NCBI RefSeq assembly: GCF_053078305.1
Contig: NZ_CP166879.1
Strand: one strand, 5' to 3'
Length of the DNA stretch: 64,000 nt
The position numbers and the translations under genes are program-made. Shown piece by piece: positions 7,640 to 29,805 of this stretch; positions within the stretch are counted from its first letter, which is position 1; the number at the start of each line of letters is the position of its first letter. Below the pieces are notes generated by a model. It saw only the letters and a list, made by a program, of their open reading frames with translations, ran no database searches and was not told where the DNA came from.

Positions 7640-8116
7640 ATGCAGACACTAAATTCCCAACGTAAAGCTTTCCTGGATATGGTGGCATGGTCAGAAGGAA
7701 CGGATAACGGGCGACAACCGACACGTAATCACGGTTATGACGTTATCGTCGGAGGTGAGTTGTTCACTGATTACTCCGATCACCCTCGCAAACTTGTCAC
7801 GCTAAACCCGAAGCTTAAATCAACAGCCGCAGGCCGGTATCAGCTTCTTTCACGCTGGTGGGATGCCTACCGCAAGCAGCTTGGCCTGAAAGATTTTTCG
7901 CCAGAAAGTCAGGACGCTGTGGCGCTGCAGCAGATTAAAGAGCGTGGCGCTTTACCGATGATTGACCGTGGCGATATTCGTCAGGCAATCGACCGTTGCA
8001 GCAATATCTGGGCGTCGTTACCTGGTGCAGGTTACGGTCAGTATGAACATAAAATCGGTGACCTGATTTCCAGGTTTAAAGATGCTGGTGGGGTGGTAAA
8101 TGAAGCTGACTTATAA
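7640..8116 (+). CDS. R: Endolysin, lambda R-type lytic transglycosylase
   Basis: Near-identical to recalled lambda R N-terminus (QRKAFLDM.AWSEGTDNGRQ.TRNHGYDVIVGGELFTDYSDHPRKLVTLNPKLKST). Confidence 0.9.
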   Translation: MQTLNSQRKAFLDMVAWSEGTDNGRQPTRNHGYDVIVGGELFTDYSDHPRKLVTLNPKLKSTAAGRYQLLSRWWDAYRKQLGLKDFSPESQDAVALQQIKERGALPMIDRGDIRQAIDRCSNIWASLPGAGYGQYEHKIGDLISRFKDAGGVVNEADL

Positions 8117-8624
8117 GATTGTTATCGCGGCATTTTTCTTCTCTGCCTTTGGGGCGCTCGTCTGGTCTGCAAACCATTACCACAGCAAGTATCAGGCAGA
8201 AAAGTTGCGGGCTGATAAAGCGGAAGGTGAAGCTGAATATCAAGGGAAAGTGATAGCTAATCAGGCATTAAACTTCAATCGTTTTAACCAGATAGCAGAA
8301 AAAGCAAGCCGATTAAATTCTCTGGTCGACATCGGTCACGAGAAGACAGTCATCAAATACCGTGAGGTTCTGCTCCGTGAAAAGAACTGTGATTTCCCTG
8401 TTCCTGTTGATATTGCTGTCGGGGTGCTCAACTACGCGAACCGTTTACGCGCCAGCGCATTGCACGCCGATTCCGGGGACATTGACTCAGCCGGTGATCG
8501 TGCCACTACCACCAGAACGTTGACATATTGCCAGGCTGTTCTGTGGATTAACCCACTGTTGGCAGCCATCGAGAAGGCGAATAACCAGTTGGCTGGTGTC
8601 CGACAAATAGAACAGTCCCGGTAA
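8100..8624 (+). CDS. Rz-like i-spanin
   Basis: N-terminal TM segment; follows and overlaps endolysin; contains embedded +1-frame lipoprotein ORF. Confidence 0.65.
   Translation: MKLTYKIVIAAFFFSAFGALVWSANHYHSKYQAEKLRADKAEGEAEYQGKVIANQALNFNRFNQIAEKASRLNSLVDIGHEKTVIKYREVLLREKNCDFPVPVDIAVGVLNYANRLRASALHADSGDIDSAGDRATTTRTLTYCQAVLWINPLLAAIEKANNQLAGVRQIEQSR
8377..8523 (+). CDS. Rz1-like o-spanin lipoprotein embedded in the +1 frame of Rz
   Basis: Manual translation (GTG start assumed) KRTVISLFLLILLSGC... with lipobox LSGC and proline-rich tail PVIVPLPPER; start codon uncertain. Confidence 0.5.
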   Translation: MKRTVISLFLLILLSGCSTTRTVYAPAHCTPIPGTLTQPVIVPLPPER

Positions 8625-8685
8625 TAGCATTACAGAAGCTCTTCCAGGAGGGGCTTCGATAATGACCTGATAACTGGAAAATAAA

Positions 8686-9258
8686 ATGACTAAGAAGCTG
8701 AAAGCAAAACACGAGGTGTTTTGTCGCGAGTTTCTTGTCGATCTGAATGCTACACAAGCAGCTATTCGCGCAGGCTACGTCTCCAGGCGAGCACATGTTA
8801 CGGGGGCTGAACTATACGGTAAACCTGAGATACGCGCCCGTATTAACGAGCTAAAGCAGGAGCGTATTGATCAACTGGGCATTGATGCGAATTATGTGCT
8901 GATGCGACTGGTTGAGATCGACAGGCTCGATGTGGCTGACATCCTGGAGGACGATTTAAGTATTAAGCCTCTGTCTGCGTGGCCGGAATCGTGGCGTCGG
9001 TACCTGAGTGGATTTAACCTCGCTGAAATGTTTGAGGGGCGAGGAGATGACAGAGAAATGGTCGGGATCCTTAAAAAGATTAAGTGGCCTGATAAGGTTA
9101 AAAACCTTGAGTTGCTTGGGCGTCATGTTTCTGTTCAGGCGTTTAAAGACAACGTCAAAAATGAAGTGACTGGCGCTGATGGAGGACCCGTCAGAACAGA
9201 AATTACCAACTTAACGCCGGAGCAGGCTGCAGAAGCGTATAAAAAAATGATGGGCTAA
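8686..9258 (+). CDS. Terminase small subunit (P27-type)
   Basis: 190 aa; position before large terminase; family from recall. Confidence 0.75.
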
Positions 9259-9260
9259 GT

Positions 9261-10883
9261 ATGCCGTTACCATTTCACTTCGATTTTAAACATCCTGATT
9301 ACCAGATGGTTTTTGAATGGCGGATGGAACGCTTACAGCGCATTCGCCAGAACCCTGAAATATTGCCCGTATTGAAGCAGTTTTACCGAACCAATCCGGC
9401 TCAGTTCATCATCGACTGGGGCATGACAACGGACCCGCGTAATATTGATTATGGCCTGCCGGTGACCATTCCGTTTTTACTCTTCCCTAAGCAGGAGGAG
9501 TGGATCCACTGGATTATGGAACGCTGGGGCAATCGGGAGAATGGTATTACCGAAAAATCCCGTGAAATGGGGCTCAGTTGGACCGCGATCGGACTGGCCT
9601 GCTCGCTTTGTCTCTTCAACAAAGAAATGGTTATCGGTTTCGGCTCCCGTAAAGAGGAATACGTCGACAGCACCGGTGACCCGAAAGCATTGTTCTGGAA
9701 GGCACGCAAGTTCGTGGAAACGCTACCTGTAGAGTTTCGCGGTTCGTGGAGCGAGAAGAAGCACGCGCCATATATGCGTGTTGAGTTTCCTGAAACTGGT
9801 GCCGTTATCAAAGGCGAGGCTGGCGATAATATTGGTCGTGGTGACCGTACCACGCTTTATCTGGTTGATGAGGCTGCATTCCTTCAGCGTCCTCTGCTGA
9901 TTGATGCGGCGTTGTCACAAACGACGCGTTGCCGTATCGACCTGAGTTCAGTTAACGGCATGGCTAACCCGTTCGCTCAGAAGCGTCATGGCGGGAAGAT
10001 ACCGGTATTCACATTCCACTGGCGGGATGATCCTCGCAAGGATGAAGAGTGGTATCGCAGGGAATGCGAGAAAATCGATAATCCGGTGGTGGTGGCACAG
10101 GAACTTGATCTGAACTACAGCGCATCAGCGGAAGGCGTTCTGATTCCATCCGAATGGGTACAGGCTGCCGTTGATGCGCATATCAAACTGGGTATCCAGC
10201 CAACAGGCAAACGACTTGGCGCGATGGATGTCGCCGACGAAGGCAGGGACAAAAATGCCTTTTCCACCCGTCATGGCTTCCTCCTGGAAAATGTGCGGGA
10301 ATGGTCCGGTGTGGGCAGCGACATTTATCAGTCCGTCGAGAAGGTTTTCGGCTTTTGCGAACAGGACAACCTCGAAGAGTTTCGCTTTGACGAGGACGGG
10401 CTGGGCGCTGGCGTTCGCGGCGATGCACGCGCTATCAACGAACTGCGTAACGCTGCGCGTCGACCGTCAATACTTGCCACACCGTTTCGAGGTAGTGGCG
10501 CGGTATTTGATCCGGATGATGAAGCTGTTCGCGGGGACAACGGGCAAGCCGCGCGTCTGAACAAGGACTTCTTCGCTAACGCCAAAGCCCAGAGCTGGTG
10601 GCGGTTACGTAAACTTTTTCAGAATACCTGGCGCGCCGTGGTTGAAGGTATGGCTTACAACCCGGACGAAATCATCTCAATCAGCAGTAGCATGGCACTC
10701 AAAGATCAACTCATCATCGAGCTTTCGCAGCCGACCTATTCCATTAATGGTGTGGGAAAAATCGTTATTGATAAACAGCCTGATGGGACCCGGTCGCCAA
10801 ATCTTGCCGACTCGGTGATGATCAACTATGCCCCAATGAATTCAGCCCTGAACATCTGGGAGTTGCTAGGGAGACAGGCCTGA
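9261..10883 (+). CDS. Terminase large subunit
   Basis: 540 aa; position and size; followed by portal. Confidence 0.8.
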
Positions 10884-12349
10884 TGGCACGAAACAAACAA
10901 GCCCTGCGGCGAACTGCGCAGGCCACAGCTGATGGTTATGAGAATTTTATCGCCCGCGTAGGGATGCAGACACCTAACCAGCACTCAGCATCCACCTACC
11001 GGGCTAATTTCACCAGTCGTAACCGCATGCTGGTGGAATGGTCCTATCGTTCTTCCTGGATCATCGGCGAAGCAGTCGATGCTATCCCGGATGATATGAC
11101 CCGCAAAGGCATTCGCATCACTTCGGAAATTGATGCAAAAGATCGTGGCATTCTCGAATCACAACTGGATGAGTTGCAAATCTGGGATGCGCTGAATGAC
11201 GTGCTGAAATGGTCGCGCCTCTACGGCGGCGCGGTGGGTTTCATCATGATTGAGGGGCAGGCACCAATGACCCCGCTGCGACCCGAAACCATCGGTAAGG
11301 GCAAGTTTAAGGGGATTCTCCCGCTCGACCGCTGGATGATTGACCCGGTACTGACCCGCCGCATTAAAGATATGGGGCCGGACCTGGGTAAACCTGAGTT
11401 TTATGATGTGGTGACCACAGCAACGGGAATTCCTGCCTGGCGCATTCATCACAGTCGCCTGATTCGCTTTGATGGCGTCACGCTGCCATTTCAGCAGAAG
11501 ATGACCGAGAACGAATGGGGAATGTCGGTTGTAGAGCGTATCTGGGATCGTCTTACCGCGTTCGACAGCGCTACTGTCGGTGCGGCGCAGCTGGTCTACA
11601 AGGCGCATTTGCGTACCTACAGCGTGGAGAAGCTACGCGAGCTTATCGCACTTGGTGGTCCTGCGTATGAAGCGTTGCTGAAGAATATTGACCTGATTCG
11701 ACAGTTCCAGAGCAATGAAGGCATGACTCTCATGGACTCGCGGGATAAGTTTGAAACCCATCAGTACAGCTTCAGTGGTCTGGATGACATCCTTTCACAG
11801 TTTGCAGAACAGATTAGTGGAGCTGTTGGTATCCCACTGGTGCGGTTGTTCGGACAGTCCCCGAAGGGATTTTCTACCGGCGATGCAGACCTTGCCAACT
11901 ATTACGACCGGGTAAGTTCGTTGCAGGAGAGGCGTTTACGTCTTCCGGTGCGGCGGATACTGGACATCATGCATCGTTCGGAACTTGGCAAGCCGCTCCC
12001 GGATGATTTCACATTTGAGTTTAACCCGCTCTGGCAAATGTCTGATGTCGATCGTTCAACGGTGGCATTAAATACCACCAACGCAATCAGTACAGCGCTG
12101 GGTGATGGTCTGATGACACTGAAAGCTGCTATGACTGATTTGCGCGAAAATTCTGACGTAACCGGCATCGGGGCATCCATTACCGACGAGGACATCGAGA
12201 ATGCCGAAGACGAAGCGCCGCCCGGCATCGGCGAACCTGATGACGAACCGCAGGAACCGTCAGGCGGAAATCCGCTATCGAACCAGCCTACGCAGGATAG
12301 CGCGGGCGGTCGGGGACATCGTAAATGGTCGCTACGATGGTTCAAATGA
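10883..12349 (+). CDS. Portal protein
   Basis: 488 aa with acidic low-complexity C-terminus; follows terminase. Confidence 0.75.
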   Translation: MARNKQALRRTAQATADGYENFIARVGMQTPNQHSASTYRANFTSRNRMLVEWSYRSSWIIGEAVDAIPDDMTRKGIRITSEIDAKDRGILESQLDELQIWDALNDVLKWSRLYGGAVGFIMIEGQAPMTPLRPETIGKGKFKGILPLDRWMIDPVLTRRIKDMGPDLGKPEFYDVVTTATGIPAWRIHHSRLIRFDGVTLPFQQKMTENEWGMSVVERIWDRLTAFDSATVGAAQLVYKAHLRTYSVEKLRELIALGGPAYEALLKNIDLIRQFQSNEGMTLMDSRDKFETHQYSFSGLDDILSQFAEQISGAVGIPLVRLFGQSPKGFSTGDADLANYYDRVSSLQERRLRLPVRRILDIMHRSELGKPLPDDFTFEFNPLWQMSDVDRSTVALNTTNAISTALGDGLMTLKAAMTDLRENSDVTGIGASITDEDIENAEDEAPPGIGEPDDEPQEPSGGNPLSNQPTQDSAGGRGHRKWSLRWFK

Positions 12350-12974
12350 CAGTATCACGGAAATTATTGAGACGCTGGAACGCTACAGTGAAATCATAAC
12401 CCCCTGGGCGACAAAGGTCGCGGAAAACTTTACCGCCGACATTGTACGCAAGAATGATGAGCAGTGGCGTAAACACAGCAAAACCATCAGCCGTGAGCTA
12501 CGCAATCTGGTAAACAGTGCCCCTCCAGGGCAGGTGATGAAATCCATCGTTGCTGAACAGGTTAAGTACATCAAATCGCTACCCCTCGAGGCGGCTGACA
12601 GGGTGTACGACATCCAGAATCGGGCGATAGAAGCTGTTGTTACCGGTGGGAGAGCGGAACATTTTGCTAAAGAAATAGCCGCATCGGGTGATATAGCAAA
12701 GTCCAGAGCTGACCTGATTGCCCGTACTGAACTTGGACGTGCAACCGGCGCGCTGGATCAGGCGCGTGCGCTGTCAATTGGTTCGAATGGTTATATCTGG
12801 CGTACAGCCGAAGATGGTGATGTCAGGCATTCTCATCGGGAAATGGAAGGTAAATTTGTCGAATGGGGCAAACCTCCAACGCTTGACGGCATGACAGGTC
12901 ACGCTGGCGAGCTCCCGAATTGTCGCTGTTATAAAGAAATTGTTTTTCCCACCTCCCATTCTTACCCCGCCTGA
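12201..12974 (+). CDS. Head morphogenesis protein (Mu F / SPP1 gp7 family)
   Basis: Motif region WRTAEDGDVRHSHREMEGKFVEWGKPP; start uncertain, the annotated ATG overlaps the portal gene by 149 nt. Confidence 0.65.
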   Translation: MPKTKRRPASANLMTNRRNRQAEIRYRTSLRRIARAVGDIVNGRYDGSNDSITEIIETLERYSEIITPWATKVAENFTADIVRKNDEQWRKHSKTISRELRNLVNSAPPGQVMKSIVAEQVKYIKSLPLEAADRVYDIQNRAIEAVVTGGRAEHFAKEIAASGDIAKSRADLIARTELGRATGALDQARALSIGSNGYIWRTAEDGDVRHSHREMEGKFVEWGKPPTLDGMTGHAGELPNCRCYKEIVFPTSHSYPA

Positions 12975-12988
12975 ATCGCAGGTAACAC

Positions 12989-14209
12989 ATGAAATATTTT
13001 TTCAATACCCGGCTGGGGGAAACCCGCTATCAGCTGGCTGACGGCTCGTTGCTGTGCAAAGACGTGCCGATAGGACGAACAGGTAAGCAGCTCTATGGTG
13101 CTGATGACCTGCCAAAACTGAAACCCGATAAGTTCGGTGAAATAGTCGTCACGCGTTCTCCTGAGCAGGTATTCCATCCCGCCACGCTTGCCTCATTCGA
13201 AGGAATGAGTATCACGGTGTTGCATCCCGAGGATGAAAACGGGGATGTGCGGCTGGTGAATCCAGAGAACTGGAAAGAGCTCGCGGTCGGGCATCTTCAG
13301 AATGTCCGGCGCGGGGCGGGTGTGCAGTCTGATTTGATGCTGGCTGACCTTATCGTCAAAGACGAAAACGCCATTCAGCTGATCGAAGATGGCCTGCGCG
13401 AAGTGTCGTGTGGCTATGACGCGGAATATAAACAGGCTGAGCCGGGTAAGGCTCAGCAGGTCGCTATTACCGGAAACCATGTGGCTCTTGTCCCTAAAGG
13501 CAGAGCCGGAAATCGTTGTGCAATTGGAGACAGAGACACAATGGCAAATCAAAAGAAAAGCTGGTGGACCCGCATGCGCACGGCCATCAAAACGGGTGAC
13601 GCTGACACCATGAACGAACTGGTGGAGTCGGCTCCCGCATCGGTTACAGGAGATGAGGGGGATTTGCCGCAGGGCGTTAATCTCAACATCAACCTGTCCC
13701 CGCAGCAACCGCTACCGGACAAAGCACCAGAGATGGGCGGAGGTCCAACCGGCGACAGTGATGATGACCTCAAAACATTACTGAAAGCCCTGCTGGCTAA
13801 GCTGGAAGGAAATGCGACGGGCGATAACGACAATAAGCCTGACGATAATCCGACCGGTGACGGCGAGGACGATGAAGAGGAAACCACGATTACTGGTGAC
13901 TCAGCCTGGCGTGCCGAAGTTATCGTTCCGGGTATCGATCTGAGCCGTAAGATGAAACCGACCGCGTTCAAACGTGAGGTTCTGGCTTCTGCTGACAAAA
14001 CGCTGGTTCGCCAGATAGTCGGTGATGCGGATATCCGCAAATTGCCGAAACAATCGGTCGACATGGCGTTTAATGCCGTGTCTGAGATTGCCAAAGGGCG
14101 AAACACCCGCGCCACCACCGGCGATGCACAGCGCCCAAACATGGGCATGACCAGTATCGCTTCCCTGAACAAACAAAACGCTGAATTCTGGGCAAACCGT
14201 AAAGGGTAA
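12989..14209 (+). CDS. Putative prohead protease/scaffold protein (Mu gpI-like)
   Basis: 406 aa with acidic low-complexity segment; gene order. Confidence 0.45.
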   Translation: MKYFFNTRLGETRYQLADGSLLCKDVPIGRTGKQLYGADDLPKLKPDKFGEIVVTRSPEQVFHPATLASFEGMSITVLHPEDENGDVRLVNPENWKELAVGHLQNVRRGAGVQSDLMLADLIVKDENAIQLIEDGLREVSCGYDAEYKQAEPGKAQQVAITGNHVALVPKGRAGNRCAIGDRDTMANQKKSWWTRMRTAIKTGDADTMNELVESAPASVTGDEGDLPQGVNLNINLSPQQPLPDKAPEMGGGPTGDSDDDLKTLLKALLAKLEGNATGDNDNKPDDNPTGDGEDDEEETTITGDSAWRAEVIVPGIDLSRKMKPTAFKREVLASADKTLVRQIVGDADIRKLPKQSVDMAFNAVSEIAKGRNTRATTGDAQRPNMGMTSIASLNKQNAEFWANRKG

Positions 14210-14212
14210 AAA

Positions 14213-14719
14213 ATGAATAATGTATTTCTGTACCGGATGCCTGTTGGCATTGCCGGGGCCGTCTCTCGCCCGCAGGACTTAACCGTCGAACCGGTGGTCC
14301 TTAAATCCGATAACGCCTTCGCTGCCTATGGCCTGGCTGGTAAATACGATGATGACGGTTTTTTCGTGCCGCTGGCAGATGGTGATACCGCAGACAAGGT
14401 GAAGGGGATCTACGTGCGCCCTTATCCGACCACTTCGCAGCCGGACATGGTTCGCCAGGTGGGGACTGGCAAGAACTTCCCGGGCGACGCCATGAAGCGT
14501 GGCTACGTGACCGTTAATCTCGGTTCTGATTTTGATGCCAGCACCATCAAAAAAGGCGACCCGGTATACGTTGTCGTCTCCACTGATGAATCCATCAAAG
14601 TGCCGCTGGGTGGATTCATGGCCACGTCAGTCAGTGGCAAAAACGTGGTGCTGACCAACGCTGAATTCACAGGTGCCGGAGATGCTGACGGCAATGCAGA
14701 AATTTCCTGGAAGATTTAA
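14213..14719 (+). CDS. Putative capsid structural or decoration protein
   Basis: 168 aa; between scaffold and major capsid. Confidence 0.4.
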   Translation: MNNVFLYRMPVGIAGAVSRPQDLTVEPVVLKSDNAFAAYGLAGKYDDDGFFVPLADGDTADKVKGIYVRPYPTTSQPDMVRQVGTGKNFPGDAMKRGYVTVNLGSDFDASTIKKGDPVYVVVSTDESIKVPLGGFMATSVSGKNVVLTNAEFTGAGDADGNAEISWKI

Positions 14720-14730
14720 GGAACAGACGA

Positions 14731-15672
14731 ATGATTACTTTTGATCAGGCAACCGTTGACAGCTCTGGTGCCTTTCTCATCGGGGAGCTGGAGCGACTCG
14801 ACCAGACGCTGAACCTGCCACTGGTGGGGTACACCTGGACCCGCGATATTCAGTTGCGTGAAGATGTCTCCATCGCAGATGACATTTCCAGCTGGACGAA
14901 TACCAGCTTCGCCGCTGCGGGTACTGGTGCAAATCCGAATGGCAAAAACTGGGTAGGCAAAGACTCAACCGCTATTGCTGGCGTGAACGTGGATATCGGC
15001 AAATCCGGTAACCCGATGAACCTGTGGGGGATGGAACTTGGCTGGACGGTCATAGAATTGCAGGCTGCTCAGCAGATCGGACGCCCGATTGATACGCAGA
15101 AGTATGACGGGATGCAACTGAAATGGCAGATGGATAACGATGAACAGGTATATGTTGGCGATTCCGCATTAAACCTGAAAGGTCTTGTTACCCTGGACGG
15201 CGTGCCTGTCAACAACGCTGCCAAAACGTGGGCAACCTCAACACCGGACGAAATCCGCGCAAGCATTAACCAGGTGCTGTCTGATGCGTGGGCCGCTTCC
15301 GGTTACTCTGTGGTTCCGCGTGATTTGCTGATCCCGCCTGAGCAGTTTGCTCTGTTGTCCAGCATCATCGTTTCATCTGCGGGTAACCAGTCCCTGTTGA
15401 CGTACCTTCAGACCAACACCATCAGCTATCACCAGAACGGTGTTCCGCTGAATATCCGCGCGGTTAAATGGCTGAAAGGCCGTGGTGTGGGGAATAAGGA
15501 TCGCATGGTTGCGTACACCAACGATAAAAAATACGTCCGCTACCCGCTGGTTCCGCTTCAGAGCGTGCCGGTGCAGTATCGCGGTCTGTATCAGATCGTC
15601 ACTTACTACGGCAAGCTGGGTGCGGTTGAGCCAGTGTACAAAGAAACCATTTCGTACGTTGATGGCATTTAA
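14731..15672 (+). CDS. Putative major capsid protein
   Basis: 313 aa; gene order in head module. Confidence 0.5.
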   Translation: MITFDQATVDSSGAFLIGELERLDQTLNLPLVGYTWTRDIQLREDVSIADDISSWTNTSFAAAGTGANPNGKNWVGKDSTAIAGVNVDIGKSGNPMNLWGMELGWTVIELQAAQQIGRPIDTQKYDGMQLKWQMDNDEQVYVGDSALNLKGLVTLDGVPVNNAAKTWATSTPDEIRASINQVLSDAWAASGYSVVPRDLLIPPEQFALLSSIIVSSAGNQSLLTYLQTNTISYHQNGVPLNIRAVKWLKGRGVGNKDRMVAYTNDKKYVRYPLVPLQSVPVQYRGLYQIVTYYGKLGAVEPVYKETISYVDGI

Positions 15673-15713: not shown

Positions 15714-15935
15714 ATGGCAAAAAATAATGCAGTAATACACGTACATACCCCGTTTGTGCTCACGCTTCCCGACGGTTCACGGCGCGAGTTTGTTAAAGGC
15801 CGTCATGCTGTGGAGGAAGACGTTGCCACGCACTGGTTCACTCGTGCGCACGCGGAAGTATCCGTTGGCAAAGCCACAGACGCGCGTAACGAGGTAAAAA
15901 ATGCCAAAGAATCAAAGTCTGCCAGCGGTAAGTGA
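15714..15935 (+). CDS. Hypothetical phage protein
   Basis: ORF track 73 aa. Confidence 0.3.
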
Positions 15936-16308
15936 TTTTCGCCGCGACTTCCCGCAGTTTGCTGACCCTGCCAAATATCCCGAAGCGCAAATCCAGTTTC
16001 GTCTGAATCTGGCCGATGAACTGCTGAGCGAAAACGTCACCGGCAAAAAGTTGTTTCCGTACTTTGCCGGGTTGTTCGTTGCGCACTACATGACGCTCTG
16101 GGCGGCAGACAGCCGGGCGATGCTGGCTGGCGAGCCGGGCGGTTCAACCAATGGAGTTCAGTCCTCAAAGTCCGTGGATAAGGTAAGCGTCAGTTATGAC
16201 ACCAGCGCGACGCTGAATCCTGATGCAGGTTTCTGGAATAACACCCGATATGGCGCTGAATTTTATCAGTTGATCACGATGTTCGGTGCAGGTGGTCGCC
16301 AGCTATGA
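15901..16308 (+). CDS. Putative head-tail connector protein
   Basis: 135 aa; position after capsid gene. Confidence 0.4.
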
Positions 16309-16859
16309 GTTTCAAAAGCGGTGTAACAACGAGGGTGGATAACGCTAAGGCTATTCTGGATGCGCTCAGGTCGTTAACCAAAAAAGATGTGCTGGTCGGC
16401 ATCCCTTCGGAAGACAGCGAGCGGGATGATGTTCCGTTTGGTAATGCGGGCATCGGTTACCTCAACGAATACGGCTCACCAGAGCAGAACATCCCGCCAC
16501 GACCTCACCTGGTCCCCGGCGTTAAATCGGCAGAAGAGCAGACGGTGCCGCAGCTCAAAGCCGCGGCGCAGGCTGCACTTGATGGTAATGCTGCGGGAGC
16601 AGAAAGCGCACTCAACCGTGCCGGAACACTGGCCGCTAATGGCGTCAGGCGTTACATGACCATTACCGGCTTTACGCCGCTTGCTGACAGTACTGTTGAA
16701 GCCCGGGCTCGTCGGGGGCGCAAGGGGGCAACACTGGAACTTGCCCGGCGTGCTGCTGGCGAATCCCCGGGAACCGAACTGGCGAAACCATTAATTGACA
16801 CCGGGCAATATCGCAGAGCGATTACCCATGTTGTGAGGGATAAAAATGCCGACTCTTGA
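16305..16859 (+). CDS. Hypothetical phage structural protein
   Basis: ORF track 184 aa; overlapping start/stop with neighbours. Confidence 0.45.
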
Positions 16860-21995: not shown

Positions 21996-22582
21996 TGGAT
22001 ATTCTCTCTACACTTTTTCATCAGCAGAGCAGAAAAATAGGAATGATTGTTCCCAGTGTTGTTATTTCAGAGAAGCATACAGATATGCTTGAAATAACAG
22101 AGCATCCGGTAGAGGTTGGGGCCGCTGTCGCTGATCATGCCTATAAAAAACCGTCAGAAGTGGTGATGGAGGTTGGTTTCGCCGGTGGCGGCGCATTGCT
22201 GGATTTTGCCAGTAATCTGACGGCTACCAGCCTGCTCGGCCTGAGTCCTCAGCAGACGTATCAGGAGCTACTGGATCTGCAGGAAAGCCGTATCCCCTTC
22301 GATGTGGTAACCGGTAAACGACTGTACAGCAACATGTTGATCCGGGCGTTGGAAGTGACGACGGACAAGACAACCGAAAACGTCCTGTCCGCCGTCCTCA
22401 CCCTGAGGGAGGTCATTATCTCCCGGACACAGCAGATTACCGTCGCGGATAAAACCAACATGAAGGAAGGGGCCAGCACGTCGGCGGTACAGAACAGCGG
22501 CAACAAAACCACAAAGCCTCCAGATACTTCACTGCTGAAAAGCATCACGGGTAACGTGGCGTCATTACTGGGGGGCGGCTAA
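21995..22582 (+). CDS. Hypothetical tail protein
   Basis: ORF track 195 aa; GTG start overlapping tape-measure stop. Confidence 0.4.
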   Translation: MDILSTLFHQQSRKIGMIVPSVVISEKHTDMLEITEHPVEVGAAVADHAYKKPSEVVMEVGFAGGGALLDFASNLTATSLLGLSPQQTYQELLDLQESRIPFDVVTGKRLYSNMLIRALEVTTDKTTENVLSAVLTLREVIISRTQQITVADKTNMKEGASTSAVQNSGNKTTKPPDTSLLKSITGNVASLLGGG

Positions 22583-22884
22583 TGACAATTCAGGAAATTC
22601 CGCTGACAGCGGACAACCAGCAGTTCAGCATCGTCCTGGGGGGTGTCACCTGGCGGATTAGCATCATATGGCGCGATCTGTACTGGATTATGGACCTGCA
22701 GAACGACAGAGGGGAGCCGGTAATCTCCGGTATTCCTCTTGTCACTGGTGCTGACCTGCTGGCGCAGTACGCCTGTATGGGGCTTGGTTTTAAGCTGGTG
22801 GTGGTCTGTGATGACAACACACAGGATTACCCCACAAAAACTGACCTGGGCGGTCGCAGCCATTTACTGGTATCAACGGAGTAA
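22582..22884 (+). CDS. Hypothetical tail protein
   Basis: ORF track 100 aa. Confidence 0.4.
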   Translation: MTIQEIPLTADNQQFSIVLGGVTWRISIIWRDLYWIMDLQNDRGEPVISGIPLVTGADLLAQYACMGLGFKLVVVCDDNTQDYPTKTDLGGRSHLLVSTE

Positions 22885-22886
22885 GC

Positions 22887-23951
22887 ATGTCACAGAACTG
22901 GATGAGACATTTCGAGCTGCAGCTTGTGGACGGGAACGGTCAGGGAATTGAGCTAAGTGATTTCAAAGTCACCTTTACGATCGACTGGTTCAACATCAGC
23001 AGCGCGTCCCGGGTAGGGACTATCAAAATTTATAACCTCTCGGCAGATACTGTGAACCGAATTACCGGGCAGGAGTTTTCGAAAGTGCGTCTGATTGCCG
23101 GTTACGACGGTATCGCGCCGGAGGTGTCAGCAAGCGACGTAGGGACCGTGCGGGGAGTTGACGCGGCGGACGTGGGCCAGAGAGATGGCCGCAACTACGG
23201 ACTGATTTTCAGCGGTGAAATTCGCTACTCGGTCACAGGAAAAGACAGTCCGGTTGATACCTACGTCCTGATTCAGGCAGCAGATACTGATCTGGCTTTT
23301 GCCACCAGTATAACCTCACAGACGCTGGCTGCCGGTTACACGGTCGCTGATGTGAACCGTGCGCTGATGAAAGACTTCGAAGCCAAAGGCGCGACCGAAG
23401 GCCTGACGCCTGAAATGCCTGCTACTGTATTCCCCCGGGGGCGGGTACTCTTTGGCATGACGCGGCATCTAATGGATAACGTAGCCGGACAATGTGGCGC
23501 AACATGGCAATTCGTGGACGGTCAGCGCCAGATGGTGGCGAATAACGAATATGTTCACGAAGCGATTGTGCTCAACAGCGCTACCGGGCTTATTGGCATG
23601 CCGCAGCAGACTATCGGTAACGGCGTAAACGTCCGCGCGCTTATTAATCCGAACATCCGGGTTAACGGGCTCATTCAGCTGGATCAGGCTTCCGTCTATC
23701 GTACCGCGTTGTCGAACAACGATATTGCGATGGCTGGTGGTCAGATCACCGACCAGAACACGGACGGAAATATCACGCTCAGCGGCACCACATCGCAGCC
23801 TGCCTGCATCGCAACGGATGGCGTTTATATTGTGCGCGGGATTATGTACACTGGCGACACAAGGGGCCAGGCGTGGTACATGGATATGATGTGTGAAGCG
23901 CGTGGCGCGGCGGATCTTGTTTCCTCATCAGCGAGGGAAAGAGGGCTTTAA
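22887..23951 (+). CDS. Putative baseplate hub protein (P2 gpD / Mu gp44-like)
   Basis: 354 aa; gene order. Confidence 0.45.
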   Translation: MSQNWMRHFELQLVDGNGQGIELSDFKVTFTIDWFNISSASRVGTIKIYNLSADTVNRITGQEFSKVRLIAGYDGIAPEVSASDVGTVRGVDAADVGQRDGRNYGLIFSGEIRYSVTGKDSPVDTYVLIQAADTDLAFATSITSQTLAAGYTVADVNRALMKDFEAKGATEGLTPEMPATVFPRGRVLFGMTRHLMDNVAGQCGATWQFVDGQRQMVANNEYVHEAIVLNSATGLIGMPQQTIGNGVNVRALINPNIRVNGLIQLDQASVYRTALSNNDIAMAGGQITDQNTDGNITLSGTTSQPACIATDGVYIVRGIMYTGDTRGQAWYMDMMCEARGAADLVSSSARERGL

Positions 23952-24286
23952 TGAAACGGTTATGTTTGGCGTTAGTTATGATGGTTACTGCTCCGGCGAT
24001 GGCTGCAATTCAGTGCGGCAACTACACGATGACCGGTGACGGAATGACTGTTATTAACGGTGAAACTGTCACATCACAGAAGATAAAATTTCTGGGAAAA
24101 GATGGTGACTATTCAAACATGAAAATGGACATGGGCCTGATGCCTTCCCGTGATGGTAACAATTACGGCTTTGAGTTTGTGAAACGTAACGGAAAAGCTT
24201 TCCTGAACGTCCAGCTGCTGCAGAACAGCATGGACGCGCCGAAAATCATTGGATCTTTCCCGTGTAAAAAAGTGAGCAGCAAGTGA
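23951..24286 (+). CDS. Small secreted protein with signal peptide (moron, unknown function)
   Basis: N-terminus MKRLCLALVMMVTAPAMAA; two Cys; inserted between baseplate genes. Confidence 0.5.
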   Translation: MKRLCLALVMMVTAPAMAAIQCGNYTMTGDGMTVINGETVTSQKIKFLGKDGDYSNMKMDMGLMPSRDGNNYGFEFVKRNGKAFLNVQLLQNSMDAPKIIGSFPCKKVSSK

Positions 24287-24795
24287 CAGTTGATGATGAT
24301 CCTTTGAATTCATTTCAAGACCCTGACTTTCAGGAACTTCTCGGCGGAATTGATATTACTCTTGTTATAAGGTTTTTTAATTATTTTTCGCGTTTCGAAT
24401 ATGCGTTAAAAAGAATTAATTTCAAAAAAACTGATCGTAGAAATTATCTAATCGGTGCTGACTGGAGCCGCTACGCTACTGATGATACGCGGCCTTTATA
24501 TCCTACTGGAAATAGAAATGTCGATAGGGCAGTTGAGTATCTATGTCAGCAACCTGTGAAGCAGCAGAGGCATGATTTTTCGTGGGAGGATAAACCTCCA
24601 ATCGAACCTCATTCTCTTGCTGAAGCATTAAAGCAGATCCCGTATATAAGAAATAATCTCTTTCACGGCGGGAAGTATTTACGTCCCGACCCCGTTCGTG
24701 ATGAAAAGTTATTGAAATACTCTATTTATTTGATGCAGTTGTGTTTGATAACTGATAATCAGCTTTCTGAATACTTTAATACTATCCACCGATAG
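24283..24795 (+). CDS. Hypothetical protein with HEPN-like R-x4-H motif (RNNLFH); candidate abortive-infection/RNase-type moron
   Basis: GTG start overlaps upstream stop (GTGA); visibly AT-rich; motif at residues 123-128; followed by terminator. Confidence 0.45.
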   Translation: MTVDDDPLNSFQDPDFQELLGGIDITLVIRFFNYFSRFEYALKRINFKKTDRRNYLIGADWSRYATDDTRPLYPTGNRNVDRAVEYLCQQPVKQQRHDFSWEDKPPIEPHSLAEALKQIPYIRNNLFHGGKYLRPDPVRDEKLLKYSIYLMQLCLITDNQLSEYFNTIHR

Positions 24796-24815
24796 TCATT
24801 CTTCATGAGATAAAA

Positions 24816-24844
24816 CCTGCCACCCGGCGGGTTTTTTGCTTTTT
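24816..24844 (+). terminator. Rho-independent terminator after the moron pair (CCTGCC-ACCC-GGCGGG then TTTTTTGCTTTTT)
   Basis: Hairpin with one G-U pair and T-run read directly. Confidence 0.5.
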
Positions 24845-24855: not shown

Positions 24856-25608
24856 ATGGCAGTAACTGACCAGACCCGCAGTGGCGATCTTGCCGAAACA
24901 TTTAAATCTGAACGGGAAACAACAAAGAACCAGATCCGTGTCGCCTTGCCTGGCATTATTCAGTCATTCGATCCTGACGCGGTGACGGCGGTTGTGCAGC
25001 CAGCTATCCGGTCGGTTGAAAAGGATAACGACGGTAACCGCATTACCAAAAATTACCCATTGCTGGTGGATGTGCCAGTGGTATTCCCGCGCGGCGGAGG
25101 CTGTACGTTGACTTTTCCGGTAAAAGCTGGGGATGAGTGTCTTGTCGTTTTTGCCGATCGTTGTATTGATTTCTGGTGGCAGAGCGGCGGGATACAGGAG
25201 ACGGTTGATGACAGAATGCATGATTTATCGGATGCGTTTTGTATTGTCGGTCCCCAGTCGCAGGCAAGGAAGATTAGCGGTATTAATACCAGTGCCACAC
25301 AGTTGCGTAGTGACGACGGCAGCACCTATTTTGAGCTTAATCCTGATACCCGGAAAATTAAAATTGTCGCTCCGGGGGGGCTTGATGTGGTTGCCCCCCT
25401 GGCTGATTTTTCTGAGAAAGTAACCATTCATGGCCTGTTAACCTGGATGGGGGGCATGGTGGGGTCTGTTGTTTCTGGTGTGGCTTCAAAAATCACTGGT
25501 GCTGTTGAGTTTTTGGGTAGCGTGAAGGCTAACGGCAAGCCAATCGATGATACGCACACTCATGGTGGTGTTCAGCGCGGTGGAAGCAATACCGACGGAG
25601 TAAACTGA
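24856..25608 (+). CDS. Baseplate assembly/spike protein (gpV-like)
   Basis: 250 aa; gene order. Confidence 0.55.
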   Translation: MAVTDQTRSGDLAETFKSERETTKNQIRVALPGIIQSFDPDAVTAVVQPAIRSVEKDNDGNRITKNYPLLVDVPVVFPRGGGCTLTFPVKAGDECLVVFADRCIDFWWQSGGIQETVDDRMHDLSDAFCIVGPQSQARKISGINTSATQLRSDDGSTYFELNPDTRKIKIVAPGGLDVVAPLADFSEKVTIHGLLTWMGGMVGSVVSGVASKITGAVEFLGSVKANGKPIDDTHTHGGVQRGGSNTDGVN

Positions 25609-25961
25609 TGCGATACAGACGTGAAGACGCCGATGGCGATTACACCTTTGGCAGCGGTGATGACACCTGGCTGATTAACTCACCGGAGGCCGTGGCGCAG
25701 GCGGTAAAAACGCGATTCGAATTGTGGTATGGGCAATGGTTTCTCGACACCACCGAGGGGACTCCGTGGATCCAGTCCGTACTCGGTAAGCAGAAGCCGG
25801 AAACCTACAACCTGGCGATCCGTAAGCGCATCCTCGAAACGCGGGGCGTTAAATCAATCCTCTCTTTCAATACGACGGTGGATACCACGACCCGACGTGT
25901 CATGTTTTCCGCTGAAATCGACACTCTTTATGGAATAACGACTGTTACATCGGAGGCGTAA
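25608..25961 (+). CDS. Baseplate protein (gpW-like)
   Basis: 117 aa; gene order. Confidence 0.55.
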   Translation: MRYRREDADGDYTFGSGDDTWLINSPEAVAQAVKTRFELWYGQWFLDTTEGTPWIQSVLGKQKPETYNLAIRKRILETRGVKSILSFNTTVDTTTRRVMFSAEIDTLYGITTVTSEA

Positions 25962-27160
25962 TGGCTCTGAACCTTGATTCTCTCGGTTTATCTGCAAAGG
26001 TAACCGCGGAGGGGATCAGTGCGCCTGATTATCAGACGATACTCAGCACCCTGATTAGCTATTTTCAGCAGATTTATGGCAGTGATGCCTACCTCGAACC
26101 GGACAGCAAAGACGGCCAGATGGTGGCTCTGATGGCGCTGGCGATTCATGATGCCAATAATATGGCGATAACTGTCTACAACTGTTTTTCACCGGCAACC
26201 GGCTATGGGGCTGCACTGACCAGTAACGTGAAAATAAATGGTATTTCACGTAAAGGCGCGACGAACTCTACGGTTGATTTGCTTCTTACAGGAACTGCCG
26301 GAACAACCATCATTAATGGCAGCGTGAAAGACAGTAATAATGTGATATGGCGTTTGCCTGCTTCAGTAGTGGTCGGCGTGGATGGTACAGTGATGGCGAC
26401 CGCAACATGTTCCGTCAGTGGTGCAGTGGCGGCGCTGGCTGGAACTATCACTGAAATTAATACGCCAACCCGTGGCTGGGTTTCGGTAACTAATCCTGCT
26501 GCGGCTACTGTGGGCACTCTGGCAGAAACTGACGCGGAGTTACGTATCCGTCAGTCGCAAAGTGTTGCGTTGCCATCAATAACCCCATTTGAAGCACTGG
26601 ATGGTGCTGTTTCTAATGTTACCGGTGTAACCCGCCACAAACTCTATGAAAACGATACTGGTTCGGAGGACGGTAACGGGTTACCGCCACACTCTGTTGC
26701 TGTAATTGTGGATGGCGGTGATGTGACGGATATTGCTCAGGCTATCAGAGGGAATAAAGGCCAGGGGACAGCCACTCACGGTACAACATCCGTTACGGTT
26801 CCGGATAAATACGGCAATCCCCATGTAATCAAATTCTCGCGTTCCAGTGATGTGCCTGTTTATGCCCGGATTAAATTAAAAGTTTTTACGGGTTATACCT
26901 CACAGATAGGGCAGCAGATCCAGCAGGCTATTTCCGACTATATCAATAGTTTGACGATTGGTGATTCGGTCCTTTTAAGTCGCATTTACTCACCGGCGAA
27001 TCTTGGCGTGGTGAGTGGCGGGAATGCACGCTATTACGATATTCAGGAACTGACGATTGGGAAATCCCCGGGGGCTTTGTCGTCATCAAACATTGATATC
27101 AGATACAACGAATCTGCGTCCTGTACCCCGGAAAATATCGTTATAACGGTGGAGTCATGA
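25961..27160 (+). CDS. Baseplate protein (gpJ-like)
   Basis: 399 aa; gene order. Confidence 0.55.
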   Translation: MALNLDSLGLSAKVTAEGISAPDYQTILSTLISYFQQIYGSDAYLEPDSKDGQMVALMALAIHDANNMAITVYNCFSPATGYGAALTSNVKINGISRKGATNSTVDLLLTGTAGTTIINGSVKDSNNVIWRLPASVVVGVDGTVMATATCSVSGAVAALAGTITEINTPTRGWVSVTNPAAATVGTLAETDAELRIRQSQSVALPSITPFEALDGAVSNVTGVTRHKLYENDTGSEDGNGLPPHSVAVIVDGGDVTDIAQAIRGNKGQGTATHGTTSVTVPDKYGNPHVIKFSRSSDVPVYARIKLKVFTGYTSQIGQQIQQAISDYINSLTIGDSVLLSRIYSPANLGVVSGGNARYYDIQELTIGKSPGALSSSNIDIRYNESASCTPENIVITVES

Positions 27161-27837
27161 GCAAATACACCGAACTAATCACGAACTACCACGCCACCAA
27201 ACCTAAATTTCTTGCGCATGTTGATCTGATGACCCGGCCGCTTATTGATGTTGCGGCTGCCACCAGAGGGCTGATTACTGCATTTGATATTGACTCTGCG
27301 GTTGGTGTGCAACTTGACATTCTGGGATTGTGGATCGGACGTAGCCGTGTTGTCAGCCAGCCTATCTCAGGTGTCTATTTCAGCTGGGATACCGACGGGC
27401 TTGGATATGATCAGGGGGTATGGCAGGGACCATACGATCCTGATTCCGGATACATGTACCTCAGCGATGAAACTTATCGTGTCATTCTTAAAGCGAAGAT
27501 TGCGATTAATAACTGGGATGGACGGAATGATTCGCTTCCGGCAATTCTTGACGCTGCAACAGCAGGATCCGGGCTGCGAATGCAGATAGTCGATAACCAG
27601 GACATGACGATATCGGTCTGGGTCTTTCCTGATACTGATATTTCAGATGTATCGCGTGAGTTAATTGCGGCAATTAAACAGGGGTATCTCACAGTAAAAG
27701 CCGCCGGGGTATGGGCGGGTGGCATTGAAACACCTTCGGTGGAAACCCCATCGGAAGGCTCAAAATTTTTTGGTTTTGATATGGATAACGAATTCATCAG
27801 TGGTTTTGATGTAGGAGCATGGGGAGTATTACTCTGA
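27157..27837 (+). CDS. Tail/baseplate protein (gpI-like)
   Basis: 226 aa; gene order. Confidence 0.5.
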   Translation: MSKYTELITNYHATKPKFLAHVDLMTRPLIDVAAATRGLITAFDIDSAVGVQLDILGLWIGRSRVVSQPISGVYFSWDTDGLGYDQGVWQGPYDPDSGYMYLSDETYRVILKAKIAINNWDGRNDSLPAILDAATAGSGLRMQIVDNQDMTISVWVFPDTDISDVSRELIAAIKQGYLTVKAAGVWAGGIETPSVETPSEGSKFFGFDMDNEFISGFDVGAWGVLL

Positions 27838-28292
27838 TGGCGAAAAATGACTTTAAAGCGTTTGCAACGGATCGAAATGCCAATGTTATATCGCAGGAGG
27901 AATGGGAAGCGTTGCCCGCGCTTTTATCCGGATTTACAGCAGGGAAAGCCTCCAGTGCGCAAGTCAATAAGGTTATTCGGCAGGTCAGCTTTATTGCTGC
28001 AGCTCTGGCCCAGTTTGTAAGTGATAAAACGCAACGGGATGTGCTTGATAATGGTGATCTGCCCGGTTTTGTTGAATTGCTGGGATCGGGGTTTGCTGTT
28101 GAATACCTGAGCCGCAAGAATCCGTTTGGTGATATCAAATCGGATGGCACGGTGAAAACGGCTCTCGAAAACCTTGGTTTGGGAGAAGAGCACAGCGTTA
28201 AGCCGGGTTGTTTCTGCCTGCGTCAGCTTCCGCCCGGCCTGCAATTTCAGCTGAATCAGACTAATGGAAGCCATAGCCGCATCAATCAGTGA
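27837..28292 (+). CDS. Tail fibre, constant N-terminal part, fused in the present orientation to only 34 codons beyond the crossover site
   Basis: ATG 27837 overlaps gpI stop; reads through site at 28162-28187 (N-L-G-L-G-E) and stops at 28290. Confidence 0.6.
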   Translation: MAKNDFKAFATDRNANVISQEEWEALPALLSGFTAGKASSAQVNKVIRQVSFIAAALAQFVSDKTQRDVLDNGDLPGFVELLGSGFAVEYLSRKNPFGDIKSDGTVKTALENLGLGEEHSVKPGCFCLRQLPPGLQFQLNQTNGSHSRINQ

Positions 28293-28715
28293 CTGGCGCC
28301 GTACTTCTGCCGCGTCTACTGCGGCGTTATGCTGTGCCTCAGTGTCGGTCACCCATTTCTCACCATCCCATTTATCGTATGACGTTAACGGGGCGATAGT
28401 GGTTGTATTTTCAGGGTAATCACCCGGAACTGTGATTTCTTTTGATTCTCCTGTTTCGGTGCTATAGACGATTTCACCGCGATGGTCTGGCACATATTCC
28501 CATGAGTTAAAATCTGCAGAACGGCAAATTGCATAACCAGCTTTATATGAGCCAGGAGCATCTAAACAGGAACATGCCGGGATACCGACACCCACAGCAA
28601 GATATTCAGTTGATGTGGAAATATATTCCCGTGTTTCACCATCATAATTATAAACGGTAATGTCTCCGGCCTTTGTGGCGATGAGTTCATTATTTAATAC
28701 AGCTTTACTTATCAT
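27924..28715 (-). CDS. Tail fibre assembly protein (Tfa/U-like); in this orientation the frame reads through the crossover site into antisense of the fibre gene
   Basis: ATG at 28715 overlaps stop of variable fibre cassette (ATGA); native C-terminus probably near the site at 28187. Confidence 0.5.
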   Translation of the reverse strand: MISKAVLNNELIATKAGDITVYNYDGETREYISTSTEYLAVGVGIPACSCLDAPGSYKAGYAICRSADFNSWEYVPDHRGEIVYSTETGESKEITVPGDYPENTTTIAPLTSYDKWDGEKWVTDTEAQHNAAVDAAEVRRQSLIDAAMASISLIQLKLQAGRKLTQAETTRLNAVLFSQTKVFESRFHRAIRFDITKRILAAQVFNSKPRSQQFNKTGQITIIKHIPLRFITYKLGQSCSNKADLPNNLIDLRTGGFPCCKSG

Positions 28716-29196
28716 GCAGCCCTCACAATATAATTAAAGGCGATGTTACGGGAGCGGGTTTCAGATGCTGTGCGAACTGAGCGAGATGCGTCGAATGTCC
28801 AGTTATAAGCGCCATAACCCTCAATAATTTCGGCTTCCTTTAGACCTGTAGATAATACTTGCCCATGTTGACTAAATGGCCCTGAACTAAGTACGTCTCT
28901 AAAAAGCTGGGTACGCCCAAAAGAACCAACAATATTCTGAATTGCATCATTCTGTGCAGATAATAAGTTACGACCAGAGTCAATCCCGCGCCCATCATCC
29001 CAGCCACGAATAAATTCACCGCGTAAATCTGGTAATTTTAATGTTGGGTAAGCCTTTGCCAGATTTGGGTACTTTTCAGAAGAAAATACTGCTCCGTTAC
29101 ATTTTAGCCACCCCATTGGCGGAGTGGCTGAAGGCCACGGAACAGGCACACCAACCGGTAATGCAGAGCCTTCTCCCAAACCAACGTTTATGAAAA
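28162..29196. mobile_element. Invertible DNA segment (about 1 kb) flanked by inverted 26-bp Pin/Gin/Hin-type crossover sites at 28162-28187 and 29171-29196
   Basis: Perfect 14-bp inverted core TTCTCCCAAACCAA (29171-29184) and its reverse complement TTGGTTTGGGAGAA (28174-28187); invertase gene adjacent. Confidence 0.75.
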
Positions 29197-29224
29197 TGCA
29201 GAAATAACGAGCAAATGGCATCAT
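28712..29224 (-). CDS. Variable C-terminal tail-fibre cassette (receptor-binding part) in the silent orientation
   Basis: Same N-V-G-L-G-E junction frame across site 29171-29196 as the constant part; first 12 codons lie outside the segment. Confidence 0.6.
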   Translation of the reverse strand: MMPFARYFCIFINVGLGEGSALPVGVPVPWPSATPPMGWLKCNGAVFSSEKYPNLAKAYPTLKLPDLRGEFIRGWDDGRGIDSGRNLLSAQNDAIQNIVGSFGRTQLFRDVLSSGPFSQHGQVLSTGLKEAEIIEGYGAYNWTFDASRSVRTASETRSRNIAFNYIVRAA

Positions 29225-29250
29225 TCCTGCTTTTGTCAGGGAGATCTACC

Positions 29251-29805
29251 ATGCTTATTGGCTATGTACGCGTATCAACAAATGACCAGAATACCGATCT
29301 ACAACGTAATGCGTTGAACTGTGCAGGATGCGAGCTGATTTTTGAAGACAAGATAAGCGGTACAAAGTCCGAAAGGCCGGGACTGAAAAAACTGCTCAGG
29401 ACATTATCGGCAGGTGACACTCTGGTTGTCTGGAAGCTGGATCGGCTGGGGCGTAGTATGCGGCATCTGGTCATTCTGGTTGAGGAGTTGCGCGAACGTG
29501 GCGTTAATTTTCGCAGCCTGACGGATGCTATTGATACCAGCACACCGATGGGGCGTTTTTTCTTTCATGTGATGGGGGCCCTGGCTGAAATGGAACGAGA
29601 ACTGATTGTTGAACGAACAAAAGCTGGACTGGAAGCTGCTCGCGCACAGGGACGAATTGGTGGACGTCGTCCCAAACTTACACCAGAACAATGGGCGCAG
29701 GCCGGGCGACTAATTGCATCAGGAGTTCCTCGCCAGAAGGTGGCGATCATTTATGATGTTGGCGTATCGACTTTGTATAAGAAGTTTCCGGTCGGAGATA
29801 AATGA
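29251..29805 (+). CDS. pin: Serine DNA invertase, Pin/Gin/Cin/Hin family
   Basis: MLIGYVRVSTNDQ with catalytic Ser; C-terminal HTH; 184 aa; adjacent to crossover site. Confidence 0.9.
   Translation: MLIGYVRVSTNDQNTDLQRNALNCAGCELIFEDKISGTKSERPGLKKLLRTLSAGDTLVVWKLDRLGRSMRHLVILVEELRERGVNFRSLTDAIDTSTPMGRFFFHVMGALAEMERELIVERTKAGLEAARAQGRIGGRRPKLTPEQWAQAGRLIASGVPRQKVAIIYDVGVSTLYKKFPVGDK

Follow-up and report, generated by a model that had tools for sequence, protein, structure and literature searches.

Late genes of a temperate myovirus prophage in yfhL of Escherichia coli: a known lineage with a putative Pam3/XM1/E217-type virion module and a reduced tail-fibre switch

Genes and features of the prophage

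The window analysed here, 64,000 nucleotides of contig NZ_CP166879.1 (assembly GCF_053078305.1), includes, at positions 1–31,109, about 31 kb from the right side of a prophage ~41.6 kb long that is inserted in the 5' end of the yfhL gene, and the stretch under study, 7640–29,805, runs from the first base of the endolysin gene to the last base of the pin invertase gene of that prophage. Its genes form one rightward late operon, as judged from the listing of open reading frames (ORFs), from Pfam and PHROGs, and from the RefSeq annotation of close relatives; the features are collected in Table 1. We read the region, with a probability of about 0.9, as the late half of a temperate myovirus prophage (lysis, packaging, head, contractile tail, baseplate, fibre and inversion switch) that belongs to a known E. 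coli lineage and carries a virion module of the Pam3/XM1/E217 type. The right boundary was placed at the attR core, a 38-bp direct repeat; since E. coli NZ_LR882978 has the identical 38 bp where yfhL meets the integrase gene of this same prophage, the window must hold the right part of the element.

The lysis cassette has the lambda architecture, with an S-family dual-start holin, an R-type endolysin and an Rz1-like frame embedded in the spanin gene. The holin, whose start position was adopted from the RefSeq annotation of a relative, opens with the dual-start motif MKM and has 26% identity to lambda S, and the endolysin is identical to lambda R at 139 of 158 positions (88%) and matches the lambda lysozyme structure (Protein Data Bank (PDB) 1AM7) with an E value of 2e-95. 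Pairwise comparison of the spanin with lambda Rz/Rz1 gave no real sequence similarity. The nearest nucleotide matches of the holin and endolysin genes are not in lambda but in phages SfV, SfII and SfIV (~89% over 7322–8216), and the lysis genes are common to lambdoid and Shigella Sf phages at ~89% nucleotide identity.

Table 1. Features of the prophage in the window (aa, amino acids; E, E value)
Feature	Coordinates	Strand	Basis or remark
Holin, lambda S family	7295–7636	+	Pfam Phage_holin_3_1 (PF05106), E 1e-27
Endolysin, lambda R-type lytic transglycosylase	7640–8116	+	Lambda R match; PDB 1AM7
Inner-membrane spanin (Rz-like)	8100–8624	+	PHROG 214, E 8e-58
Outer-membrane spanin ORF, 53 aa	8362–8523		Lipobox LLSGC; embedded in spanin gene
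Small terminase	8686–9258	+	Pfam Terminase_2 and PHROG 2 (both terminases)
Large terminase	9261–10,883	+	As above
Head module	10,883–15,672	+	Portal, Mu_F-domain protein, DUF2213 protein, cement protein, major capsid protein (Pfam)
Head-tail connector	15,714–17,773	+	STY1053-family, DUF4054, Neck1/tail completion, head protein, neck terminator (Pfam, PHROGs, RefSeq names)
Tail module overall	17,777–21,995	+	Sheath, tube, tail assembly chaperone, tape measure (Pfam)
Sheath (DUF3383)	17,777–18,922	+	Pfam
Tube (KPP10_Orf10)	18,933–19,373	+	Pfam
Inner baseplate	21,995–23,951	+	Dit-like protein, Pam3 gp18-type plug, hub (Pfam)
Cargo slot between hub and spike	23,951–24,835	+	GC 42.7%
111-aa signal-peptide protein	23,951–24,286	+	
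170-aa HEPN-like protein	24,283–24,795	+	
Strong terminator-like hairpin	24,812–24,835		Closes cargo slot
Outer baseplate	24,856–27,837	+	Spike, sheath initiator, Baseplate_J wedge, DUF2612 wedge (Pfam)
Tail fibre, constant N-terminal part	27,837–28,188	+	Collinear with relatives to 28,188
Invertible segment, one cassette	28,177–29,181	-	Chaperone and fibre C-terminus
Fibre-assembly (chaperone) gene without last 25 codons	28,189–28,715	-	
Alternative fibre C-terminus	28,712–29,170	-	
Pin-type serine invertase, intact	29,251–29,805	+	Pfam Resolvase and HTH_7; catalytic serine in VRVSTNDQ
215-aa cargo protein	29,886–30,533	-	GC 36%
Small backbone ORF beside attachment site	30,594–30,935	-	PHROG 17793
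attR core	31,072–31,109	none	38-bp direct repeat TTCACACATATCACAATTGATGCATTTTTTAGTGATTA

Relatives of the element

The region was searched against 50,697 phage records and 5,426 complete E. coli genomes. Among the phage records, 606R2, 611R5 and 683R1 match it at 98% identity over 91% of its length, 689R2 reaches 88% coverage at 98.2%, and 72% is covered at 81.6% by Salmonella phage SEN34; among the bacterial genomes, 230 of the 5,426 hold at least 80% of the region collinear in one place, and the best of them cover 95% at 97.7–97.8%. Prophages of this type are common in E. coli and already represented in the public phage records; from these alignments, the lineage of the element is that represented by Escherichia phages vB_EcoM-606R2, 611R5 and 683R1. 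Phage 611R5 matches 6792–28,188 at 97–99% except for ~370 bp inside the tape-measure gene, and the NZ_LR882978 prophage matches 1–24,273 at 97.9%.

Block alignment and an identity plot in 500-bp tiles against NZ_LR882978 and 611R5 show where this similarity is interrupted. The lysis, head and tail genes are 96–100% identical to both, and there is no step at the lysis/head or the head/tail joint. Against NZ_LR882978, identity falls below 96% at 5501–6000 (82%), at 19,501–20,000 (92%), in the hub/spike slot (where 24,273–24,815 is replaced), at 25,001–26,000 (95%, tiles just downstream of that slot) and in the fibre cassette. Against 611R5 it drops in the immunity/replication region (~2100–6500), in tile 13,001–13,500 (93%), in the diverged middle of the tape-measure gene (~20,500–21,400) and again in the fibre cassette, which departs from the relatives from 28,189 on; the gene between pin and attR also differs among relatives, as does the early region among members of the lineage. 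The true swap points of this lineage are the hub/spike slot, the fibre cassette from 28,189 and the pin/attR slot, not the joints that had been proposed in the initial annotation.

Type of virion

Mu proteins were scanned with Pfam and set against the window proteins of the same positions. At the portal position, Mu has Portal_Mu (PF06074; gp29) and the window has Phage_portal_3 (PF06381, E 7e-106); at head morphogenesis, Mu has Phage_Mu_F plus MuF_C and the window protein (12,201–12,974) has Phage_Mu_F alone (E 2e-17). The protease/scaffold position is taken by Mu-like_Pro (gpI) in Mu and by a DUF2213 protein here, the capsid by Mu-like_gpT and by PF09950 (the Mu protease/scaffold and capsid proteins match PF10123 and PF10124), the sheath by Phage_sheath_1 (L) and by DUF3383, and the tube by Tail_tube (M) and by KPP10_Orf10; the cement protein of the window is of the E217 gp24/XM1 gp53 type. 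The Mu_F domain and Baseplate_J are the only virion families common to the two. When every window protein was compared with the Mu genome by tblastn, the sole matches were the invertase and the J protein (26% over 43%, a weak partial match to gp47), and none of the head and tail proteins matched P2. The Mu_F-domain protein is 257 aa long, versus 439 aa in Mu, lacks MuF_C and has no pairwise similarity to Mu gp30, and the Phage_Mu_F domain has been reported outside the Mu group as well. The tblastn and Pfam family comparisons together led us to reject a descent of the virion genes from Mu or P2. The initial annotation was right that the head contains a Mu F-family protein and wrong to call the head and contractile tail Mu-like; the presence of a Mu_F domain alone does not make a head Mu-like.

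The baseplate was judged in the same manner. The gene order sheath, tube, tape measure, hub, spike, initiator, J, second wedge is the usual myovirus order, and to this extent the gpV, gpW, gpJ, gpI-like order that had been read here holds; of the P2-type families themselves (Phage_base_V/Phage_spike, GPW_gp25, Baseplate_J and Tail_P2_I), Baseplate_J alone is shared. The spike has a PF18352 N-domain and a GpV apex motif, and it scores 33 bits against TIGR01644 (phage_P2_V), whose cut-off is 46.75; the positions of P2 W and I are occupied by the sheath initiator and the DUF2612 wedge protein, which are related to Pam3 and XM1.

Membership in the Pam3/XM1/E217 group was scored on Pfam cut-offs passed or on matches to solved chains with E < 1e-4. 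The window has the cement protein, the PF09950 capsid (Pam3 capsid 8HDT, E 3e-19), the DUF3383 sheath (XM1 7KH1, E 8e-41; Pam3 8HDR, E 5e-25), the KPP10-type tube, the gp18 plug and a sheath initiator of the Pam3 gp21/XM1 gp15 type (Pam3 gp21, E 5e-12); in addition, the DUF2612 wedge protein matches XM1 gp17 (E 8e-5), and a match of the hub to E217_GP41 falls under the Pfam cut-off. By its protein families, the virion module is of the Pam3/XM1/E217 "small myovirus" type and of neither the Mu nor the P2 type.

Origin of the mosaic

That the element is a mosaic, as the initial annotation held, is correct. Its lysis genes are those of lambdoid and Sf phages, its virion module is shared with SEN34 (the TerL protein is 95% identical, the head module proteins 80–92%, but TerS only 33% over part of its length), and its fibre/invertase cassette is common to e14, HK97 and P2-like phages. 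In the fibre C-terminus and chaperone, identities of 86–94% link it to P2-like phages (pro483), HK97, HK106, SfIV and Klebsiella phages. To SEN34 it is unrelated in the early and lysis regions. Neither freshness nor rarity comes with this structure: judged by the alignments above, the mosaicism is real, old and at the level of modules, which is normal for temperate phages, and the element is a member of a fixed lineage rather than a newly formed one.

A more dramatic history would make it a recent and unusual chimera of lambda lysis genes, a Mu head and tail, a P2 baseplate and the e14 Pin, with fresh joints that carry new cargo. Several of the observations on which such a history could draw are sound. 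The endolysin is indeed nearly lambda R, a Mu_F domain is present, the invertase is of the Pin family as had been stated (95.7% identical to e14 PinE), the lambdoid match of the lysis genes ends at ~8216 and similarity to SEN34 begins at ~9220, and cargo genes lie at 23,951–24,795 and 29,886–30,533. The same combination, however, is found at 97–99% in deposited phages and in the 230 complete E. coli genomes; of the head and tail proteins, the J protein alone finds a match in Mu and none finds one in P2, and the portal, capsid, scaffold-position, sheath and tube families are unlike those of Mu. The cargo does sit at some module boundaries, but the slots are away from the lysis/head and head/tail joints; "lambda-type lysis" describes the architecture and the endolysin well, and the holin and spanins poorly. 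It had been said at the outset that a single phage genome matching the whole element would overturn the mosaic, and the module-wise comparison came essentially to that, with 98% identity over 91% and 5–9% left uncovered. Because such whole-element matches exist, the recent-chimera reading is largely refuted, and we consider it hardly tenable beside that of a fixed lineage.

The tail-fibre switch

The intact Pin protein is 78% identical to Mu Gin and matches PDB 3UJ3 (E 1e-93), and the whole pin gene with its upstream region is 90% identical to e14 in nucleotides, as the assembly gene is to e14 tfaE at 89%. The left crossover site (28,160–28,188) closes the N-terminal part of the fibre gene and the right one lies beside the invertase gene; 20-nt inverted repeats at 28,169–28,188 and 29,170–29,189, which are 95% complementary, bound the segment, and both sites have a core of the AAACC-NN-GGTTT type, as at Mu gixL. 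Pin would invert the short segment between these sites and so supply the fibre N-terminus with a receptor-binding C-terminal part, and the same inversion would bring the assembly chaperone into sense orientation. In the present orientation the fibre N-terminus reads into ~31 nonsense codons, giving a truncated fibre; flipping the segment in silico gives an uninterrupted fibre of 278 aa.

A full switch of this kind has two fibre C-termini, each with its assembly gene, the two pairs facing opposite ways, and both pairs are kept in relatives and in e14; here one pair is left. Compared with strain CD45, which has the full four-gene segment and whose cassette is otherwise 99% identical, 936 bp are missing right after the left site, and with them have gone the second fibre C-terminus and its chaperone, together with the final 25 codons (DYIDAVTATDISTAPDVIWPELPEA) of the chaperone that remains. 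Strain TL20 has an intact segment in the orientation opposite to that of CD45, and the switch therefore appears to flip in nature. A 140-bp probe across the 28,188/28,189 junction found the junction in one piece in none of the 5,426 complete E. coli genomes. An origin of the deletion by Pin action was considered and is unsupported, there being no pseudo-crossover site or microhomology at its right end.

We take the switch of this copy to be a decayed derivative, and less likely an assembly error. In the latter case both the 936-bp deletion and a 1-bp frameshift upstream (see below) would be artefacts, the real prophage would be intact, and mixed orientations of the segment would have misled the assembler. 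Invertible segments are a recognised source of assembly trouble, and both the negative result of the junction probe and the fact that the deletion, on its left, coincides precisely with the edge of the crossover repeat are what such an error might leave; a mere flip, however, would create no junction between the crossover site and the interior of the chaperone gene, the junction has no collapse-prone repeat, and the flanks are otherwise 99% identical to CD45, so that an artefact seems to us unlikely. It could also be asked whether a segment with one cassette is a working on/off switch of the fibre (phase variation) and no decay at all, as both crossover sites and an intact pin are retained and the flipped state yields the uninterrupted fibre. 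Against this, the chaperone is without the last 25 residues that both chaperones of the intact relative have and runs into unrelated sequence in either orientation, and the uniqueness of the arrangement among the genomes searched speaks against a selected design; we regard a working on/off switch as very unlikely. As a decayed derivative, this copy would in its flipped state make the full 278-aa fibre with a damaged chaperone, and it is probably impaired in making infectious particles. The deletion, private to this copy, is a mildly new side item.

In a separate observation, megablast of 27,800–31,110 against the phage records returned 42 records at ≥99%, mostly Stx1a-, Stx2- and Stx2c-converting (Shiga toxin, Stx) phages. 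The sub-queries 28,189–29,830 and 29,830–31,071 recovered none of the 42, which places the match in 27,800–28,188 or in the 38-bp attachment-site core.

Cargo genes and neighbouring regions

The slot between hub and spike is low in GC, and in NZ_LR882978 and SEN34 other ORFs take the place of the 170-aa gene. The 170-aa protein has no Pfam match; FSRFEYALK and RNNLFHGGK are invariant in 27 homologues, and the latter is an Rx4H motif of the HEPN type (HEPN proteins have Rx4-6H in a helical bundle). A profile match to a CRISPR-associated protein is weak (E 0.02) and aligns on RNxxxHGG, and fold matches to HEPN toxins are weak also. One distant homologue follows a gene pair of the HTH_3 and Peptidase_M78 families; in bacterial chromosomes, distant relatives follow a regulator pair of the XRE/ImmA kind. 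The protein is a probable HEPN-type effector. A tentative extension, which we put forward as a possibility that is more doubtful than not, is that the 111-aa and 170-aa genes are an uncharacterised cargo cassette with its own terminator, and that the 170-aa protein stands for a new small family of HEPN-type ribonucleases acting as a toxin or anti-phage effector. An antiterminated late transcript would pass through the terminator that follows these genes.

In the pin/attR slot, the 215-aa protein combines a membrane helix at its N-terminus with a four-helix bundle, and its homologues, 60–74% identical across Enterobacterales, adjoin toxin-antitoxin pairs (HigB/HTH or CcdAB) or lie in a conjugative element. 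A fold search returned generic four-helix-bundle matches, designed proteins among them, and no function is claimed. The SEN34 equivalent of this slot holds an acyltransferase; the backbone ORF beside the attachment site is 79% identical in nucleotides to SEN34_31, which adjoins the SEN34 integrase. Known defence systems were sought in the 111-aa, 170-aa and 215-aa proteins, and no named family was found in PADLOC, Pfam, NCBIfam or PHROGs. The uncharacterised 170-aa and 215-aa genes are modest leads for defence-gene hunting.

Upstream of the stretch under study, a Q-type antiterminator is encoded at 6054–6476. From the families concerned, it would give a single long late transcript that covers holin, endolysin and spanins and then all virion genes. 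The interval between Q and holin is a frequent site of toxin genes in lambdoid phages; a search for cargo there turned up only a 113-aa ORF of unknown function (6508–6849), which a 1-bp deletion near 6625 frameshifts into pieces of 58 and 69 aa and which is unbroken in NZ_LR882978. The early region (1–5772) is unlike the lambda-type O/P module of SEN34 and encodes a VapE-type primase/helicase at 3580–5772; its immunity region (2620–3576) is exchanged between phages that are otherwise 98% identical. In relatives, genes for a family A DNA polymerase, DUF2800, DUF2815 and VRR-NUC proteins and a DEAD-box helicase are found upstream. The early region of 611R5 contains, at 3105–3866, a TIR-domain gene of the PADLOC candidate defence family PDC-S35 (E 1e-108), and its position lies upstream of where the window begins.

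Downstream of attR come the host genes yfhH, pgpC, tadA, mltF and purL, and the rest of the window is ordinary E. coli chromosome, collinear at ~98%; the 98% collinear alignment to NZ_LR882978 has a gap of ~150 bp at 46,543–46,692 between glyA and yphH. The tRNA scan of the window found zero tRNA genes. The "complete genome" record of 611R5 (ON470588) includes host yfhH, pgpC and tadA at its right end and thus exceeds the prophage boundary.

Confidence in the assignment

Some points weigh against reading the region as the late half of a prophage of this known lineage. No deposited genome matches the region over its full length; 5%–9% of it stays uncovered, in the cargo slot, in the fibre cassette and in the central part of the tape-measure gene. 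The left ~10 kb of the prophage, with the integrase, is beyond the window and was seen in a relative alone. That Q, Pin and the lysis genes are active is presumed from homology, the truncated chaperone is likewise presumed to be non-functional, and errors of sequencing or assembly could account for the 936-bp deletion and for the 1-bp frameshift. For phage biology the element itself matters little, as its type has already been deposited, induced and imaged by others.

Comparison with known systems

The closest systems are phages 606R2 (ON470579), 611R5 (ON470588) and 683R1 (ON470593) and the NZ_LR882978 prophage, which have the same gene order from Q to the fibre N-terminus at 96–100% nucleotide identity and the same integration site beside yfhH, pgpC and tadA. 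Phage 611R5 carries both the 111-aa and the 170-aa cargo genes; it differs in its immunity/replication region (2100–6500), in a diverged tape-measure middle, in its fibre cassette, in a truncated invertase and in the gene that fills the pin/attR slot. The NZ_LR882978 prophage differs in its hub/spike ORFs and in having the full four-gene invertible segment. An induced urinary E. coli phage whose nearest relative is vB_EcoM-683R1 was found by electron microscopy to be a myovirus (PMC12945033).

SEN34 (Brunovirus) is alike from the large terminase to the second wedge protein, in the same order and at 65–96% protein identity. It has its own lambda-type O/P replication, Red recombination and nin genes, and its small terminase, holin, endolysin and spanin are different; an invertase is lacking, and an O-acetyltransferase is found in the slot after its fibre genes. 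Its authors noted the combination of myovirus morphology with lambda-like early genes (PMC5261728). The genus threshold is 70% over the whole genome, and the urinary phage, at 31.3% intergenomic similarity to SEN34, lies under it (PMC12945033). The element described here falls outside Brunovirus as well, the virion module being all that is common (72% of the region at 81.6%).

The switch is to be compared with the Pin/P-segment of e14, a cryptic prophage of E. coli K-12; that switch is of the Din family (Gin, Cin, Hin, Pin). It likewise sits at the end of the fibre genes, and the crossover, tfaE and stfE parts are alike at 89–95% nucleotide identity. The e14 segment has four genes (the C-terminal part of stfP, tfaP, tfaE and stfE), whereas here the tfaE/stfE-like half is present with its chaperone cut short. 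The lambda S-R-Rz/Rz1 cassette corresponds in its order of holin, endolysin and embedded spanins, in the dual-start holin and in the R-like endolysin, and differs in the low identity of the holin to S and in spanin sequences unrelated to Rz and Rz1.

With the Mu morphogenesis module the prophage shares the Mu_F domain, a Baseplate_J protein and a Gin-like invertase that closes the fibre genes, whereas Portal_Mu, MuF_C, Mu-like_Pro, Mu-like_gpT, Phage_sheath_1 and Tail_tube were not found in the window. P2 V-W-J-I matches the spike, initiator, J and second wedge genes in order and roles, and the families differ. Phages Pam3, XM1 and E217 (8HDT, 8HDR, 7YFZ, 7KH1) have cyanobacteria, Vibrio and Pseudomonas as hosts. 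Pam3 has been called a minimal myophage (PMC9942802). The similarity of these phages to the prophage is at the family level only (E 1e-5 to 1e-41) and takes in the cement, capsid, sheath, tube, plug, initiator and wedge families.

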